Source of the DNA: a virus
IMG/VR virus record: IMGVR_UViG_3300028859_000017
Coordinates: 16,323 to 80,322 of that record
Length of the DNA: 64,000 nucleotides
Strand: one strand, 5' to 3'
How positions within the stretch are numbered: position 1 is the stretch's first letter; every line of letters begins with the position of its first letter. Below, in pieces: positions 16,256 through 57,602 of the stretch. The notes under the pieces are model-generated. The model was not told the origin of the DNA, made no database searches, and worked only from the letters and a program-made list of their open reading frames with translations. Position numbers and translations under genes: made by a program.

Positions 16256-16355
16256 TGTAGTTAACTCCTTAATAATACGTATATCACTTTACTTATTAGT
16301 CTAACACATATAAATTAATTACTTCTTTTATCCTTATATTCTTTAATAAAATTTT

Positions 16356-30546: not shown

Positions 30547-31440
30547 TTATCTACCTATTATATCACTTATATCACTTATATAACTCTCTAAATTTTTCTC
30601 TTCTGTATAGGGTATTATGATTAGTTTTATATTATTCTCTTTGGCATATATCACTTTATCCATATCACGTTGTTTAGCTTTTAAATGCTGTTCTTCTGTT
30701 TTTTGAAAAAAATTTGGAAATATATAGTGCTGATAACCATGATACTCAAATGCTATTTTATGTTCTTCATTATAACCATCCCATTGATATCTATGTTTAT
30801 TATATTTAAAATTAGTCTTTATAAATTTAATATTTAGTTTTTGTTCTAATAACTCTTTACATTTATACTCTGTCTTAAAAGAGGCACATTCAGGACACCA
30901 TTGCCTTTGATCCTTTATAGCATGCCATATAGCATGCCATATAGCATGCCATTGATGACCCTCTTTACATTCCCATAGCATTTTAGTATTATTGTTTATA
31001 TAAACAGAGTCTAAACATTTTCCATTTCTTGATTTAGCATAATTACAGCACTCAGAAATATCGGATTTAACATTCCCGCAGCAATATGGGCACCAAGTAT
31101 TATCTGAGTTAACTACATGCCAACAAGAAAACCATGAGTGACCACTACTACATTCCCACTCCATCTTAGCTTTATTATTGGTGTAGTTAGTTGACTTCAG
31201 TTTTCCTCCTCTAGCTATAGCATAGGCTTGTAAAATCTCTATTGAAGTCCTAACACAACTATTACAAGTAGGACACCAAGTATTATGAAAGCTTACCTCA
31301 CTCCAGTTAGCCTTCCACTGATGACCCTTCTCACATTCCCATAACATCTTTGTTCTATTATTTATATAAACAATATCCAAGCATTTACCATTCTTAGATT
31401 TAGCATGCTCTTGACATACCTCTATAGTTCCTCTTCTCAC
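30547..31440 (-). CDS. zinc-repeat (3 units) endonuclease, paralogue of 17336..18568
   Basis: 3x WEC..GH.W...WCP.C with near-identical C-terminal nuclease domain. Confidence 0.85.
   Translation of the reverse strand: MRRGTIEVCQEHAKSKNGKCLDIVYINNRTKMLWECEKGHQWKANWSEVSFHNTWCPTCNSCVRTSIEILQAYAIARGGKLKSTNYTNNKAKMEWECSSGHSWFSCWHVVNSDNTWCPYCCGNVKSDISECCNYAKSRNGKCLDSVYINNNTKMLWECKEGHQWHAIWHAIWHAIKDQRQWCPECASFKTEYKCKELLEQKLNIKFIKTNFKYNKHRYQWDGYNEEHKIAFEYHGYQHYIFPNFFQKTEEQHLKAKQRDMDKVIYAKENNIKLIIIPYTEEKNLESYISDISDIIGR
30916..30951. repeat. 3 x 12-bp perfect tandem repeat (TATAGCATGCCA)
   Basis: Encodes WHAI-WHAI-WHAI within the third zinc unit. Confidence 0.95.
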
Positions 31441-33292: not shown

Positions 33293-34273
33293 TCATTCCT
33301 TATCTTCTATACTATCTGAAACATTTTGCTTTTGAGAGAATATTATTAGAGGTCCAAATGTCTCTTTTAATAACTCAAGAGCATCCTGAACCTCTTTTAT
33401 CTTAACACCACATTCATTTTTTAAAGTAAATACTAAATTATTTGCTAATCGTGGCCCTGCTTCTGGTATATGAATAAGTTCCAATAATTTTGTTATTATT
33501 TTTTTATTTAAAGGAGTTATTAAATCATCTTCTATGTTTGATAAATACTCTAAAACTAATAAAAATTCCTGGAAAATTATAGGGGCATCAGTAGAAAGAT
33601 AGGCTTCATTACCAAATAATCGTGAAATATTATCATAACTAACATTAGTGATTCGTTCAGCACCATAGTTCATAGTAATTGTAGTTATACCATAGTTTAA
33701 AATCATTACAAAATATGTGAATACTCTGGCATAAATTGGATTACCCCTATCATCAGTTCCTACAACTCTATTAGGGTCAAACTTATCCATGGCCTGAATA
33801 ATTTTTAATATGGCACTTTGAAAAATTTCCTCATATGCTAACCCATGCTTATGACGGGCATATTTGAAGATTACCCCATCGATAAGCTGATAACAATAAG
33901 TTAAAAAATCATTCCTATCATTATAGTCTTTACTATCATGCCATTTAGTCCATAAATATTTTCCTACATCCTCTATAAAATAGTTATTAGACTTCTTTCC
34001 TCTTTTCTTTTTATCGGCAAGTTCTGGATATCTTTCAGGATATAAGCTATATGCCTTTAATAGAAAAGAAGAACTATACTTATTATTAGGAAATTTATCA
34101 AGCATTTCACCAATAATTCGTTTTTCCATAAAGTCCACATCAATTTTAGAATATAGAATTACTCTATATCCGTGCTTAACATCTTTTCCAATATCATCTC
34201 GGTCTATGCCAAGATTATCATATATATTTTCATAAGTTGGTAAATTTACTTCAAAATTATTATCTATTTCCAA
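33293..34273 (-). CDS. phage sigma factor, gp55-like late sigma with N-terminal extension
   Basis: KKSNNYF...EEIFQSAILKIIQAMDKFDP...VFTYF, matching the sigma region 2 pattern. Confidence 0.75.
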   Translation of the reverse strand: MEIDNNFEVNLPTYENIYDNLGIDRDDIGKDVKHGYRVILYSKIDVDFMEKRIIGEMLDKFPNNKYSSSFLLKAYSLYPERYPELADKKKRGKKSNNYFIEDVGKYLWTKWHDSKDYNDRNDFLTYCYQLIDGVIFKYARHKHGLAYEEIFQSAILKIIQAMDKFDPNRVVGTDDRGNPIYARVFTYFVMILNYGITTITMNYGAERITNVSYDNISRLFGNEAYLSTDAPIIFQEFLLVLEYLSNIEDDLITPLNKKIITKLLELIHIPEAGPRLANNLVFTLKNECGVKIKEVQDALELLKETFGPLIIFSQKQNVSDSIEDKE

Positions 34274-36644: not shown

Positions 36645-36671
36645 TTATCGACAAATACAAGAAAAGCCTGA
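36645..36671 (-). promoter_or_regulatory. sigma28/FliA-like promoter of uvsX
   Basis: TCAG-N15-GTCGATAA. Confidence 0.7.
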
Positions 36672-36907: not shown

Positions 36908-37774
36908 TTAGTCCTCATCCAAAAGTTTTCGCATTTCATCAAGGTCTATTTCACTACCTACTTCTGGTTCCTTTGACTGAGCCTTTCGTGGTTCTGGCTT
37001 ATACTTATCGAGCATTGCGTGTTCTATTTCAGCTTCATCAAGCTCTTCATCAGCCTCTACTGGAGTTGAACTAAATTCCTTAAACTTAGCAGCAAGTTCA
37101 GTATCATTGAGAGGAGAAACAACACTAGTGAGGTCTGGAGAAGCATCAACAAGAGAGTCCCAAATTTTCTTAGCATTTTTGCCATCAAAGGCAGCAGATG
37201 AATCGCCGAAATCCCAGCTGATCGTTGTAACCGTATTCTTTCCTGTGGCTTTGGTTTTTAGAAGCTCCACATCACGACCGGTCTGAAAATCAACAAAATC
37301 AATTTCCTTTTCTAGCTTGCTTTCAATAAGGCTCATTACCGACTGAGAAGAAGCTCTAACAATCTTAATATCATCAGAGGAAATGTTAGCTGGATCAATT
37401 TCATTTGGCTGAAAACCAACTAGCAAATAATGCTTTTTAGCAAATAACTTCTTAGCTGCTTCGAGATATTCCTTGTCATTAGTCTTTGTAAACTTACGAT
37501 AAGTCTTTGAGGCTAAATCACAGAAGGGGCAGAAACGATCCTCTGTTTGACGGGGGCAGGCAATACTCTCAAAATGACCATCAGGGAATGTGACAGCATG
37601 ATGATTAAAAATACTAATAGGAAGCTCTAGATTTTCTGACTTTAGTGGTAGAAATCTCAGAGTGTACTTATGACCAGCATCATACTTCATCCAATTGAGA
37701 CCAGAAGAAGCTTTCTTGGCCTTTGACTGTTCCATCTTCTGCTTAAACTTTTCGAAATTAGTAGTAGTAGCCAA
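36908..37774 (-). CDS. gp32: single-stranded DNA-binding protein
   Basis: LRFLP, H...CP....CPFC zinc site, D..TGRD, acidic C-terminus; probable TTG start at 37774 after AAAGGA. Confidence 0.9.
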   Translation of the reverse strand: MATTTNFEKFKQKMEQSKAKKASSGLNWMKYDAGHKYTLRFLPLKSENLELPISIFNHHAVTFPDGHFESIACPRQTEDRFCPFCDLASKTYRKFTKTNDKEYLEAAKKLFAKKHYLLVGFQPNEIDPANISSDDIKIVRASSQSVMSLIESKLEKEIDFVDFQTGRDVELLKTKATGKNTVTTISWDFGDSSAAFDGKNAKKIWDSLVDASPDLTSVVSPLNDTELAAKFKEFSSTPVEADEELDEAEIEHAMLDKYKPEPRKAQSKEPEVGSEIDLDEMRKLLDED

Positions 37775-37902
37775 TTTATTTCCTTTTGCGAACTTAATCG
37801 CTGAAAAGATACCCACTTAGGCATCAAAATTATTAATCATATAATTAATTCAGTAGTTTCTTGGTAGCTGTTTCTCTGTCTGCTACCCTTGCTACATAAC
37901 TA

Positions 37903-37929
37903 ATATCGGTAAGCACTCAGAAAACATGA
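37903..37929 (-). promoter_or_regulatory. sigma28/FliA-like promoter of gp32
   Basis: TCATGTTT-N11-ACCGATAT. Confidence 0.75.
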
Positions 37930-37947
37930 GAAAAAATTTTTGAAAAT

Positions 37948-38484
37948 TTACCACATAACCTGACCCATAGGAACGAAATCACTAGGGTGAAGGGCATAAT
38001 CATCAGGTTCAACTACATCATTATACTTACACCAAGAGGTATTAGCACTAACTTCAAGCATATTAGCCACTAATACTGAGCAGTCCATTGCCCTATAACG
38101 AAATAGCTGCTGAAAAATAGGCTTAAATGTCCAACAACCAAAGGTAAGCCTATGTAAGAAATGGTTTAAGGCAGAATCAGCTAAACATAAATATCCATAA
38201 GGCTCATGTCTCCAAAAACTTTTTTCATTAATTTCTGGAAGATTAAAAGTTGGTCTAAAACAAAAAACTTCCTCAGCATCTTCTAAATAATAAAAAGGAG
38301 CATAGGATAAAGTTCTCAAAGTAAGTGCTTCAAGAATGTATAGCTTTCCATCCACCTCTCTGACAGCAGCTGAATGGACAAAAGAACTTCCTTCAATCAA
38401 TCTAATTAGTTTCTGAAGGAAAGTTGCTTTTTCTTTATGTGTAAAAAGTAAAATATCGCCATGACGCAATTCGGTATACAGCAT
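37948..38484 (-). CDS. permuted papain-like NlpC/P60 amidase (YiiX/YebB-like)
   Basis: GDILLF, HSAA, Y, DCSVLV, P.D order with His before Cys; AGGAGG SD; late-type motif upstream. Confidence 0.8.
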   Translation of the reverse strand: MLYTELRHGDILLFTHKEKATFLQKLIRLIEGSSFVHSAAVREVDGKLYILEALTLRTLSYAPFYYLEDAEEVFCFRPTFNLPEINEKSFWRHEPYGYLCLADSALNHFLHRLTFGCWTFKPIFQQLFRYRAMDCSVLVANMLEVSANTSWCKYNDVVEPDDYALHPSDFVPMGQVMW

Positions 38485-38538
38485 TAAACCTCCTAAAATT
38501 AATTATTTAGGATACCAAATATTTATTTTCAAAAACCC

Positions 38539-38565
38539 TAAAGTTTCTCCAATATTATACGATAA
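38539..38565 (+). promoter_or_regulatory. sigma28/FliA-like promoter with a perfect extended -35
   Basis: TAAAGTTT-N11-TACGATAA. Confidence 0.8.
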
Positions 38566-38670
38566 TAAAGCAGCAACTTGTCGCTTAAATATTAACCTTC
38601 AAGCAAAGCAAAGAAAGCCTAAACAAACAAGTAAAACCTAAAAGATAGAAGTTCAAAACAAAAATAAATC

Positions 38671-38722
38671 GTTCGAAGCGAAGCTGAGAACTGGGTTGAG
38701 AGAACGAAGTTCGAGCAACCCA
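38671..38722 (+). other. twin GAA-triloop hairpins in a purine-rich non-coding strand-switch region (candidate origin or structured RNA)
   Basis: GTTC-gaa-GC(GAA)GC-tga-GAAC abutting TGGGTTG-aga-GAAC(GAA)GTTC-gag-CAACCCA. Confidence 0.6.
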
Positions 38723-38785
38723 TAAGGAACTGGAACTAGAACTAAGAAGATAAATAAGTAGTATGAAAGCTGACAATGAATAACT

Positions 38786-39928
38786 ATGGCTTCTATTAAA
38801 TTTAGACAAAAATTATCTGGAAGACTTAGAACTGGAAAAAGGTCTAAAAAACTTAATACCAGAACTAAGATATCTGAGAATAATAACAATCCTCTTCTAA
38901 TTGTTGATATAACTTATCTTGAGGAATTATTGTTATTCAGACAGCAGTGTAAAACTTCTGCTCTCTATAATAAATCCATAGAAGAATTAGTTAAAAGAGT
39001 ATATACATGGCTATATTCTGCTTTTACTATAATAAACCCTTCTGGAATTCTGTTTATTTCAGAACAAAATACAACTTTAACACAGGCTTTAAATCAGTCT
39101 GTAATATATGGAAATGTTAAAAATATCATATTCTCTTTACTTAATCAACAGATAAATAATAAATCTATCTGTATTCTTTCTAATAATTTAGATTTATGGT
39201 CTCTAGTCTCCTTTTCTGCTAAAATATCTTTTCTGGCTATAAATTCAGATAATAGACTTTATTACTATAATAATAAAACTGGTTTAGATATTCTTTCTAA
39301 ACTTATAGGAACTTATAAAATAGTAAATAAACTTGGATTAGATAGTTTAAAGTATATGAGTCTTCAATATCTTTATATGTTGCTTTTTTATATTCAATTT
39401 ACTAACAAGAAGAAAAATGAAGATTTTTATTTTGATAAAGATTATTTTAAAAACAACTATAAAAAATTTTCTAAATCAAATGGATTAGGTCTGGAACTCA
39501 TAGCTAAAGCCCATAAGTTTTTAAGTTATGCTTTTTTAACTAAACCAGAATTTTTAGATTATTTCTTTCTGGGCAACTCTTCCCACTTCTCCTTAAATCT
39601 TCAGCGTTTAATGAAGCTTTTATATTTTGATAGAGTTTTATTAGAGGGTATGAAAGCATCCTATGATAAAGTTCAAAAACCTTCTGTAATACCTAATATA
39701 GACTTCTCTAATACCCAGCCAGAGCTCCCAAGTCAGTTTAAATGTTATACTATGCTGTGGAATAATGATACCTCCTGTGATAGCCTACAAGAGCAGAAAA
39801 TATTTGATAGAATAAGTAATAGGTATAATAAAAAACTTGAGGAACCTATTGAACAAGCTGAAATTACCGATAATAATAGTATTAATACTGTTGAGAATTA
39901 TGTAAAAAACCTTTTATCGGAGATATAG
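38786..39928 (+). CDS. degenerate PIN/5'-3' exonuclease-like protein
   Basis: LLIVDITYL and CILSNNLDLWSLV parallel LLIDGHNL and IILSNDSDFLQLV of the next gene; most catalytic acids absent. Confidence 0.5.
   Translation: MASIKFRQKLSGRLRTGKRSKKLNTRTKISENNNNPLLIVDITYLEELLLFRQQCKTSALYNKSIEELVKRVYTWLYSAFTIINPSGILFISEQNTTLTQALNQSVIYGNVKNIIFSLLNQQINNKSICILSNNLDLWSLVSFSAKISFLAINSDNRLYYYNNKTGLDILSKLIGTYKIVNKLGLDSLKYMSLQYLYMLLFYIQFTNKKKNEDFYFDKDYFKNNYKKFSKSNGLGLELIAKAHKFLSYAFLTKPEFLDYFFLGNSSHFSLNLQRLMKLLYFDRVLLEGMKASYDKVQKPSVIPNIDFSNTQPELPSQFKCYTMLWNNDTSCDSLQEQKIFDRISNRYNKKLEEPIEQAEITDNNSINTVENYVKNLLSEI
39847..39873 (+). promoter_or_regulatory. sigma28-like promoter (weak -35) upstream of rnh
   Basis: TATT-N15-ACCGATAA within the 3' end of the previous gene. 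Confidence 0.5.
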
Positions 39929-40983
39929 TGGTAAGTCCTAAATTCATGGATTCACAAAATGTTCTCTTAATTGATGGACACAATCTCTTAATAAGGGTAA
40001 TGTTTTCTAAGAATAAGGGTTCAGTAGTGATATCCGAACCTGAGTTAATACAGGAATGTGCTGAAATTTTTATTAATCAAATCAGTCTTTGTATCAGGAA
40101 ATATTCTTGTAAGCGACTTTATGTAGCATTTGATAATGGTGGCTCTATAAGAAAGAAAGCTATCTTTGAAGCATATAAAGCAAATAGACCTGCCTCAGGA
40201 ACTAACTATGGACAAGTTTCCGCTTTTAATGATACTAGTAGTGATTTATTTAGTAAGTTAAAAGAAAAAGTATTAGAGCTTTGTAATATACTTAATCTAA
40301 CTGTTTTCTGTGAGTATGGAATAGAAGCAGATGATTACATAGGAATTGCTACTAAAGAGCTTACTAATATAGGTAAGCAAGTTATTATTCTGAGTAATGA
40401 TAGCGACTTTCTTCAGCTTGTTAGAACCCCTTCTGTAATTTGTTCTATTCCCTATAATAAATCAGAGGTATCTTTAGATAATTTTACTCGTTACTTTTCT
40501 GAATTGCCAAAAACAAAAGGAGTAACTATTAGTAGTTATGAATATTTGTTTTATAAGGTTATAGTTGGAGATACTTCAGATAATATTAATGGAATTAAAG
40601 GAATTGGTTATAAGACTTTATTTAAATTAATGAAAGAACAATTACCATTAGAAAATAAATCTACTTTAGATATTTATGTTAAAAATAATTTAGATTATAT
40701 TAAACTTCTTTCTTCACGGAATTCAACTAAATTAGAGAAACTTATTCACGAGAATATAGAATTACTTGAACGTAATTATAAGTTAATAGATTTAACTTCT
40801 TCTGTAATTTCTTCAAATACAGTATCCTTAACCTTAAAAAAGTTATTAGAGGTCGGTGAGCTTCCTGGAAAAAAAGAAACCATTCATAAATTTCATGAGT
40901 TATTTCCATTAGCTACTAATTATATAGACTTTGTTATCAGCACTTTATTTGCCTTTAAACCGGTCTATAAAGAACCTGAGTAA
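39928..40983 (+). CDS. rnh: RNase H / 5'-3' flap exonuclease
   Basis: LIDGHN, AFD, YKANR, EADD, SNDSD, GDTSDNI.GIKGIG.KT. Confidence 0.93.
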   Translation: MVSPKFMDSQNVLLIDGHNLLIRVMFSKNKGSVVISEPELIQECAEIFINQISLCIRKYSCKRLYVAFDNGGSIRKKAIFEAYKANRPASGTNYGQVSAFNDTSSDLFSKLKEKVLELCNILNLTVFCEYGIEADDYIGIATKELTNIGKQVIILSNDSDFLQLVRTPSVICSIPYNKSEVSLDNFTRYFSELPKTKGVTISSYEYLFYKVIVGDTSDNINGIKGIGYKTLFKLMKEQLPLENKSTLDIYVKNNLDYIKLLSSRNSTKLEKLIHENIELLERNYKLIDLTSSVISSNTVSLTLKKLLEVGELPGKKETIHKFHELFPLATNYIDFVISTLFAFKPVYKEPE

Positions 40984-40994
40984 TTTGTCGATAC
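40968..40994 (+). promoter_or_regulatory. sigma28/FliA-like promoter of primase
   Basis: TAAA-N15-GTCGATAC, then GGGAGG SD. Confidence 0.8.
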
Positions 40995-56791: not shown

Positions 56792-56808
56792 TAGATTTTG
56801 GAGACTGT

Positions 56809-56985
56809 ATGAATGATGAACAAAGTATTACGTTTACACAACAAGAATTACGTGTTTTGTTAGATATATTAAATAAGTATAGTATTTCAATAAGTGTTAG
56901 TGATTTATCAAAGATACAAAAGCAAGAAATACAGTCTCCATTATTAACTATTTTTGACAAGTTAACTGAATCACAAGGGAGCTAA
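56809..56985 (+). CDS. small hypothetical protein, 58 aa
   Basis: ATG 56809 with GGAG SD downstream of the promoter. Confidence 0.6.
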   Translation: MNDEQSITFTQQELRVLLDILNKYSISISVSDLSKIQKQEIQSPLLTIFDKLTESQGS

Positions 56986-57085
56986 TATATGGTTTGTTTG
57001 TCCGAAAAGGCAAGAGCAAATTATGAGAGTAGTATTGAAGTAAGTAATTAAATTATATCAATAAGTTAATGAAAGGATATTATAA

Positions 57086-57235
57086 ATGAAGAATGGTAGC
57101 GAAAAGCATGGTGTTGGAGGCGAGCAGAAAGGTCCTGTAAAGGTTCCTGGTAAGACTCAGAAGAATGGTATTTTACGTGATACTCGTAAGGGTACTGTAA
57201 AGCCTAGTGGTGGTATTAAGGAAGATAAGCGTTAA
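57086..57235 (+). CDS. 49-aa Lys/Gly-rich protein (not in ORF track)
   Basis: AAGGA SD; MKNGSEKHGVGGEQKGPVKVPGKTQKNGILRDTRKGTVKPSGGIKEDKR; AAG/GGT/CGT codon use like gp23. Confidence 0.75.
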   Translation: MKNGSEKHGVGGEQKGPVKVPGKTQKNGILRDTRKGTVKPSGGIKEDKR

Positions 57236-57265
57236 TTAGTAATGTAATTTAAAGGAGATAATAAG

Positions 57266-57379
57266 ATGGTAGATAAAAAGAAAGACTCAGGTAAGAAACT
57301 TCCACCCTGGCTTAAGAAGGATGGTAAGGACGATAAGAAGATGGATAAGAAAGACAAGAAGGGTAAGGATTGTAAGTAG
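57266..57379 (+). CDS. 37-aa Lys/Asp-rich protein (not in ORF track)
   Basis: AAGGAG SD; MVDKKKDSGKKLPPWLKKDGKDDKKMDKKDKKGKDCK. Confidence 0.75.
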   Translation: MVDKKKDSGKKLPPWLKKDGKDDKKMDKKDKKGKDCK

Positions 57380-57400
57380 TCTTTATTTGTGGGTGCTGTA

Positions 57401-57544
57401 GTGCCATTTAAATCAGATAAGCAGCGAAAGTTCTTTAACATTAATAAAGGTAAGTTAGAGAACTCAGGTGTTAACGTTGAAGAATGGAATAAGTCTAGTA
57501 AGGGCAAGAAATTACCAAAAGTAGCACCCAACAAAAAGAAATAA
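57401..57544 (+). CDS. 47-aa basic protein with MPFKS start (not in ORF track)
   Basis: GTG start; MPFKSDKQRKFFNINKGKLENSGVNVEEWNKSSKGKKLPKVAPNKKK. Confidence 0.75.
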   Translation: MPFKSDKQRKFFNINKGKLENSGVNVEEWNKSSKGKKLPKVAPNKKK

Positions 57545-57573: not shown

Positions 57574-57602
57574 AGAGACCCGTTAATTTGGGTCTCTTTT
57601 TT
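57574..57602 (+). terminator. intrinsic terminator
   Basis: AGAGACCC-GTTAATTT-GGGTCTCT-TTTTT. Confidence 0.88.

Follow-up and report, generated by a model that had tools for sequence, protein, structure and literature searches.

What function, if any, is served by two abutting hairpins that lie where the coding strand of a peat phage switches from minus to plus? The window analysed here, a stretch of 64,000 nucleotides, covers positions 16323 to 80322 of a linear IMG/VR viral contig that is 80,322 bp long, with 32% G+C and an estimated completeness of ~46% (CheckV). The phage is uncultivated, its peat origin was judged from the 14 DNA runs containing the contig, and its relatives have genomes of ~230 kb. 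An earlier note on this DNA had proposed a promoter-primed replication origin whose displaced strand folds for primase or helicase loading or, alternatively, a structured leader or small RNA. The structured leader is the reading that we favour, on the grounds of a conserved promoter, the lack of an ORF and RNA-library contigs that join the leader to coding sequence.

The gap extends from 38485 to 38785, the minus-strand ORF ending at 38484 and the plus-strand ORF beginning at 38786, which bears out the described flip in coding direction between two divergent gene blocks. The minus-strand block comprises a 178-aa ORF, a gp32-like SSB, a UvsX/RecA homologue (27-29% identical to those of cultured phages) and many further genes down to base 139, and the plus-strand block comprises a 380-aa ORF, then a 5'-3' exonuclease and then a DnaG-like primase. 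The 380-aa protein (38786-39928, plus strand) had no match in Pfam or PHROG, but its AlphaFold model (pLDDT 75) has a FEN / 5'-3' exonuclease-like fold, the best Foldseek matches being nearly all flap endonucleases or 5'-3' exonucleases; 30 clusters of homologues were found, with P0002 and P0003 at 83% and 74% identity, respectively. As this FEN-like ORF immediately precedes the canonical 5'-3' exonuclease gene, two FEN-type genes stand in tandem. Its AUG lacks a Shine-Dalgarno sequence here and in every fetched relative; the divergent neighbour gene has GGAGG. This neighbour, the 178-aa ORF (37948-38484, minus strand), belongs to a small unnamed family of 43 clusters with invariant His37 and Cys135, remotely related to the YiiX / Peptidase_C92 permuted papain-like amidases, a kinship that led us to reject it as a DNA-binding regulator of the palindromes described below; its AlphaFold model was unusable (pLDDT 37).

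For comparison, six loci were fetched from relatives, corresponding to five distant lineages with 35-61% protein identity. Compared with these, the present lineage alone carries the 178-aa ORF as an insertion separating gp32 from the divergent promoter; in L006-L010 gp32 directly adjoins the intergenic region. The locus had no DNA or protein match in the GenBank phage collection and none among genome contigs; metagenome contigs added just duplicates and one fragment, and scans with the exonuclease and gp32 returned the same near-identical strains and no others.

Transcription of the plus-strand block probably starts at a σ28/FliA-consensus promoter (38539-38565, plus strand), made of TAAAGTTT at 38539-38546, a spacing of 13 nt and CGATAA at 38560-38565. 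It is the single match in the window, with 0.01 expected by chance, and it stands directly upstream of the leader as had been reported; the start of transcription would be near 38571-38574. Both boxes and their spacing precede the homologous gene in L006, L008, L010, L009 and L011, and this promoter is the one thing in the intergenic region that aligns between lineages. The other CGATAAT-type sites of the phage have no good -35 box and lie ~10-20 nt from a strong ribosome-binding site, a proximity that marks the long leader at this locus as a special, retained feature. Separately, a recurring TTTGTCGATAAT-like box lies ~8-12 nt before the strong Shine-Dalgarno sequence of replication and nucleotide-metabolism genes, at 36650 and 20847 on the minus strand and at 40989, 52570, 56786 and 57625 on the plus strand; together with a phage sigma-like ORF at 33293-34273, which has a weak match to the sigma-70 family, these boxes suggest a phage-sigma regulon.

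The leader of the replication-gene block occupies the 220 nt from 38566 to 38785 (plus strand) and is as strongly skewed as first described, with an A content of 0.47 and a purine content of 0.66; in coding-strand windows of equal length, purines average 0.52 ± 0.04 and never reach 0.66. Its first part (38566-38668) is an A-rich, CAAA-rich segment of about 70% A+T in which no stable local fold is predicted. No plus-strand ORF of at least 20 aa is present in the leader, in agreement with an untranslated region. A small protein-coding gene was rejected, the minus-strand ORFs being of low complexity, with TTG starts, and overlapping the start of the real gene. A cmscan search against Rfam (E up to 10, positions 37500-39800) gave no match inside 38485-38785. 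We also rejected the idea that the leader is a decayed duplicate of the 5' end of the gene: composition accounts for the similarity between the protein sequences (108 of 1000 shuffles), and in a local alignment of the nucleotides the match is slightly out of the ordinary (3 of 500 shuffles, 2 of 100 control segments).

Two hairpins follow the A-rich segment on the plus strand and abut without a spacer, as the earlier note had seen. Hairpin 1 (38671-38691) reads GTTC-GA-AGC-GAA-GCT-GA-GAAC, with tandem G.A mismatches and a GAA triloop, and contains GCGAAGC at 38678-38684. Hairpin 2 (38692-38722) reads TGGGTTG-AGA-GAAC-GAA-GTTC-GAG-CAACCCA, with a 3x3 purine internal loop (AGA/GAG) around a GAAC-GAA-GTTC core at 38702-38712. 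Each thus has a C(GAA)G cap and purine-purine internal mismatches. Folded as RNA, the pair (57 nt) reaches -21.1 kcal/mol (z -4.46), with none of 200 shuffles as good. Most of the signal is carried by hairpin 2 (z -6.4 alone as RNA, z -6.1 as DNA), hairpin 1 alone being marginal as RNA (z -1.8, 9 of 200 shuffles), and the structure of the whole 231-nt gap is not unusual (z -1.15). Among all 57-nt windows on both strands of the 80-kb contig the pair ranks about 11th, which indicates a structure that is real without being extreme; most of the better-ranked windows are intragenic, and several others are canonical terminators with long perfect stems. All 18 pairs are Watson-Crick, with no G-U, and the sequence therefore does not tell which strand folds. 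Both loops and every internal-loop mismatch are purine on the transcribed-sense strand, and as RNA this strand is more stable than its complement by 3.9 kcal/mol (-21.1 versus -17.2); with DNA parameters the two are equal (-10.3 versus -10.1).

Immediately downstream are the hexamer repeats GGAACT-GGAACT-AGAACT (38726-38743, plus strand), whose copy number differs between strains: one unit is absent in L002 and in one RNA-library contig of run X19. They account for the three GAACT copies (38727, 38733 and 38739) that had been reported together with AGTTC at 38650, all of which we recovered. More broadly, GAAC/GTTC occurs 8 times in 95 nt (the next best in the contig being 5), RGAACT 6 times in 185 nt in a single orientation, extending into the first 80 nt of the ORF, and CGAAG 3 times in 35 nt; these clusters exceed those in the rest of the 80-kb contig and in all 200 block-shuffled genomes.

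Such words could be operator or iteron sites in double-stranded DNA for a phage or host protein controlling the divergent promoters or replication, a proposal that we hold to be improbable. The cluster is the densest in the contig and was equalled in none of the 200 shuffled genomes, GAAC-N3-GTTC is a perfect palindrome, and the repeated use of RGAACT in one orientation would suit a row of binding sites. However, the direct repeats are spaced by 6 bp, with no helical phasing, and one repeat unit is dispensable in nature. In both palindromes, the mismatched triplets of either arm consist of purines on the plus strand, a bias that a double-stranded site does not need. Nor was a regulator gene found nearby, and the lineage-specific neighbour ORF is a YiiX-like enzyme rather than a DNA binder.

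The hairpins and repeats might also be devoid of function of their own, having arisen as quasi-palindromes and short tandem duplications through slippage and template switching in a leader constrained in length and purine richness alone. We regard this as unlikely yet to be taken seriously, and several observations fit it: the copy number of the adjacent hexamer varies between strains that are otherwise 99% identical, the motif is restricted to one narrow lineage, hairpin 1 by itself does not reach significance, lineages diverge freely in the sequence of the leader, and the dense direct and inverted reuse of one 4-6-nt word is the expected product of local duplication. Against it, hairpin 2 is very improbable by composition (z -6.4), the two hairpins share an unusual design, with the C(GAA)G cap and purine-purine internal loop, and abut without a spacer, and an analogous hairpin with GA loops occurs in L011 at a similar distance from the ATG.

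A terminator scan of 37800-39000 predicted none. A plus-strand terminator or attenuator was rejected, hairpin 2 being followed by AUAAGGAAC on that strand, and no plus-strand terminator is predicted before 57574, hence along the 18-kb block. On the minus strand, the pair and a U-rich run (complement of 38655-38668) could in principle form an intrinsic terminator insulating the gp32-side genes from antisense transcription that leaves the plus-strand block, and UUUAUUUUUGUUUU does lie within 2 nt after the second hairpin on this strand. We consider this highly improbable: beyond the negative scan, the hairpin beside the U-run is weak (-4.9 kcal/mol, z -0.9) and unlike the clear terminators of the phage, which have long perfect stems and direct T-runs, and the minus strand has neither a gene nor a promoter to the right. 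The U-richness of the minus strand simply mirrors the A-rich leader.

Conservation of the hairpins in relatives, which the earlier note had suggested looking for, was contradicted by every fetched relative, all at no more than 61% protein identity. A covariance model of the pair found nothing in any of them or in the whole genome of the 230-kb relative, and a degenerate pattern of hairpin 2 matched two near-identical IMG/VR contigs only. To judge from these comparisons, the hairpins appear to be lineage-specific, their sequence and structure being kept in near-identical strains only, with the relatives compared at most 61% identical. The near-identical strains themselves differ in the gap by one SNP and the loss of one GGAACT unit in 300 nt; at 99.2% identity, the intergenic region is conserved no better than the flanking genes (about 0.6-0.8% divergence overall), and the comparison has no power to detect selection.

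All five lineages share the σ28 promoter (a -35 box, a CGATA -10 box and 13 nt between the two). In each of them it precedes an untranslated leader, which measures 136-220 nt (136-167 nt in the relatives) and ends in an AUG without a Shine-Dalgarno sequence, and the non-template strand has an excess of purines that ranks within the top 0-6% of coding-strand windows. The leader contents differ. L011 carries, at ~-102 relative to the ATG, a non-homologous, significantly stable hairpin whose internal loops are GA/GA (z -4.0), and L009 has another, likewise non-homologous (z -4.8); no significant leader hairpin was found in L006, L008 or L010. A small 5'-proximal hairpin near the start site occurs in some lineages only. 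Three lineages have Shine-Dalgarno-like purine tracts without a nearby start codon, and in one lineage the leader includes an uninterrupted purine run of 24 nt. The Shine-Dalgarno-like tracts are reminiscent of the STAB-SD and polypurine elements that act as 5' stabilisers in Firmicutes.

Contigs from four peat/permafrost metatranscriptome runs were placed over 37500-40000. Coverage of gp32 reached a depth of 8-22 in all four runs, and that of the 380-aa gene was patchy, at a depth of 2-6. In run X19, two contigs of depth 2 cover 38645-38865, and one of them, the contig that lacks a hexamer unit, spans hairpin 2 into the ORF, which is compatible with the hairpins being within the message; this evidence weighs little, because it comes from one run at low depth and from contigs, which reveal neither strand nor transcript ends, with possible DNA carry-over. 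No contig covers 38511-38644 in the four runs and an X15 contig stops at 38510, which signifies an absence of cover only. As a separate observation, one depth-2 contig of X19 joins 38977 back to 38645 across the 7-nt microhomology ATAGAAG; this junction could result from a template switch of reverse transcriptase at an RNA 5' end near 38645, from a rare tandem duplication or from an artefact.

Taken together, we favour the view, to which we give somewhat less than an even chance, that the twin hairpins form a stem-loop module restricted to this lineage within the 5' leader of the replication operon, where they would probably serve as a stabiliser or processing barrier. The fold asymmetry toward the sense RNA, the retained long leader without a Shine-Dalgarno sequence and the RNA contigs lead us to this preference, as does the variation between lineages in their stable hairpins or Shine-Dalgarno-like purine tracts; a fold beyond chance, a unique promoter kept in five lineages and the lack of an ORF also speak for it. 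On the other side stand the lack of conservation beyond near-identical strains, the lack of a leader hairpin in L006, L008 and L010, the reliance on two depth-2 contigs of one run whose library possibly contains DNA, and the 63-nt distance to the AUG.

In such a leader, transcription would start at the conserved σ28-type promoter near 38572 and produce, in order, an A-rich RNA stretch of ~100 nt without structure, the pair of coaxially abutting stem-loops (38671-38722), the GGAACU repeats and the AUG, which lacks a Shine-Dalgarno sequence, before continuing into the message for the FEN-like protein, the 5'-3' exonuclease, the primase and onward. The hairpins would most likely act in cis and as RNA. 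With G.A mismatches to stiffen it, the compact pair would block 5'-to-3' decay or mark a processing point after cleavage within the A-rich segment, and this would set the level of the replication-gene message. Both the processing step and the stabilising effect are thus predictions of the model. A protein-binding or anti-pausing role appears less likely, and the remaining probability falls to a small RNA or a hairpin promoter.

Several known systems bear on this choice. Gram-positive bacteria and their phages possess 5' mRNA stabilisers of various kinds, including 5' stem-loops, the cryIIIA STAB-SD and the polypurine stabiliser of SP82. They share with the present locus a long untranslated leader in which a stable stem-loop or a Shine-Dalgarno-like purine tract lies well before the start codon, as well as an element type that varies between relatives; by contrast, the leader of the window has just a weak Shine-Dalgarno-like AAGGA. 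The translational operators of T4 genes 32 and 43 likewise combine a structured element with an A-rich leader free of structure, on the mRNA of a replication gene and in a phage that has gp32. However, they overlap or adjoin the ribosome-binding site, whereas the hairpins end 63 nt before the AUG and hence could not directly occlude ribosome binding, and the regulated gene here is not gp32. The put RNA of HK022 (putL and putR), an antiterminator that enables polymerase to pass terminators further downstream, also consists of two adjacent irregular stem-loops in nascent RNA, within a few hundred nucleotides of an early or middle promoter and ahead of a long operon. The differences are that no Rfam or sequence match and no conservation were found, that the element measures 52 nt here versus about 70 nt, and that the 18-kb block contains no predicted terminator to override before 57574.

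The main competing explanation, possible in our view but doubtful, is that the promoter and the purine-rich untranslated stretch form an R-loop origin of the T4 oriF/oriG type. A persistent R-loop, trimmed by phage RNase H/FEN enzymes, would prime leading-strand synthesis. In this lineage, C(GAA)G mini-hairpins formed by the displaced plus strand would keep the bubble open or signal where primase or helicase enters. T4 oriF and oriG each consist of a middle promoter and an A+T-rich downstream element, with R-loops that are sequence-independent, and oriE, oriF and oriG lie at transcriptional divergences with compositional shifts (PMC3016281). The layout of the locus, with a non-housekeeping phage promoter and an A+T-rich downstream element, matches these two defined T4 origins. 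As in oriF (uvsY) and oriG (34), a regulated phage promoter leads into A+T-rich sequence that is not conserved (here at the A+T level of the genome background), and the candidate stands at a transcriptional divergence and compositional shift beside recombination and replication genes, among them those for gp32 and an RNase H-like exonuclease. It lies at the main strand switch, with gp32/UvsX on one side and the FEN-like protein, 5'-3' exonuclease and primase on the other, a junction also present in the 230-kb relative. The non-template purine excess in five lineages despite unconserved sequence would fit a sequence-independent stabilisation of the hybrid.

Further support comes from L011, the 230-kb relative, whose leader opens with G7-TTT-G6 (about 2847-2862; G001 142902-142917) on the non-template strand; no other G7 run occurs on that strand in 230 kb, and runs of at least G6 number just three there. 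This tract resembles the mitochondrial CSB II tract. One may imagine, though we think it rather unlikely, that the conserved combination of a σ28-type promoter and a leader with a purine-/G-rich non-template strand between gp32 and FEN/RNase H/primase serves as an R-loop origin across a clade of uncultivated ~230-kb phages, each lineage stabilising the displaced strand or hybrid differently: by C(GAA)G mini-hairpins here, by G7-TTT-G6 in another lineage and by the 24-nt polypurine in a third.

Several results weigh against an origin. The cumulative GC skew of the window does have its minimum at about 38-40 kb, coincident with the strand switch, so that the inflection anticipated by the earlier note exists; however, in the 230-kb relative, which shows two equal minima, GC skew turns at every change of gene orientation. 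As skew follows gene orientation, it provides no origin signal. The first 100 nt of the leader have a GC content of 0.30 versus 0.31 for the background (A+T 70% versus 69% for the genome), so that, with an A+T content (0.70) at background level, no special unwinding element is evident. No helically phased iterons are present, the hairpins are missing from all fetched relatives, and with DNA parameters they are modest (-10.3 kcal/mol) and without strand preference. T4 origins, moreover, need no hairpins (PMC3016281). The candidate origin would thus differ from oriF and oriG in its hairpins and its background A+T, as well as in its promoter, of σ28 type here and MotA/σ70 in T4. Of the origin proposal, what stood is circumstantial, namely the promoter, the purine-rich stretch and the divergence beside replication genes; the hairpins are unconserved and the skew is otherwise explained. 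If the origin reading applies, it does so to the promoter-leader unit as a whole. An R-loop origin and a leader function are not mutually exclusive, and in T4 the origin transcript can double as a message leader.

The hairpin loops have precedents of their own. GCGAAGC is the exact sequence of an extraordinarily stable DNA mini-hairpin, which counts in favour of an origin: hairpins of this type occur at the G4 and RSF1010 ssiA priming sites and in N4 promoters, and their RNA versions are less stable (PMC13037366). The d(GCGNAGC) sites of the phage G4 complementary-strand origin, RSF1010 ssiA and the N4 virion-RNAP promoters resemble the locus in the exact GCGAAGC, supplemented here by a second C(GAA)G cap, and in short stems with 3-nt purine loops. 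They differ in acting on single-stranded or supercoil-extruded DNA and in being conserved within families, whereas the present motif lies in a double-stranded phage region, in one lineage, with no N4-like polymerase detected. N4-like hairpin promoters for an injected polymerase are unsupported, the 1688-aa protein giving no family or Atlas lead.

In themselves, the hairpins are a local curiosity of one peat-phage lineage. The larger interest lies in their surroundings, where a unique full-consensus σ28-type promoter is invariably followed by a long untranslated region rich in purines. This promoter-leader unit, which occupies the main strand switch next to the replication genes, is kept across phages whose neighbouring proteins are just 35-61% identical. 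Were it a regulatory leader, it would show the tuning of a replication operon whose first gene has no ribosome-binding site; were it an R-loop origin, the principle of T4 oriF/oriG would hold in a distant clade as well, and such origins could be sought by a sequence-independent signature, namely a promoter with purine/G skew. Under either reading, a defined fragment of 250 bp can be tested in vitro without a cultured host.

Three observations concern other parts of the window. On the minus strand (37817-37947), gp32 is preceded by a CGATA-type promoter of its own with a leader of 85-110 nt, and an ATGTA(A/G) box and hairpins are common to the gp32 leaders of this phage and its relatives (L006 and L008, about 2700-2800), which suggests gp32 autoregulation as in T4. 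The region 56800-57540 has no plus-strand ORF of at least 100 aa and contains several short plus-strand ORFs with good ribosome-binding sites, including two for lysine-/glycine-rich peptides of about 40-50 aa (about 57087-57236 and 57267-57380), with a clear terminator beyond it at 57574-57597. Finally, at ~30905-30960 on the minus strand, within a coding region, a 12-nt unit (GGCATGCTATAT) forms a perfect triple tandem that is the most stable 57-nt fold of the contig (-26.3 kcal/mol).
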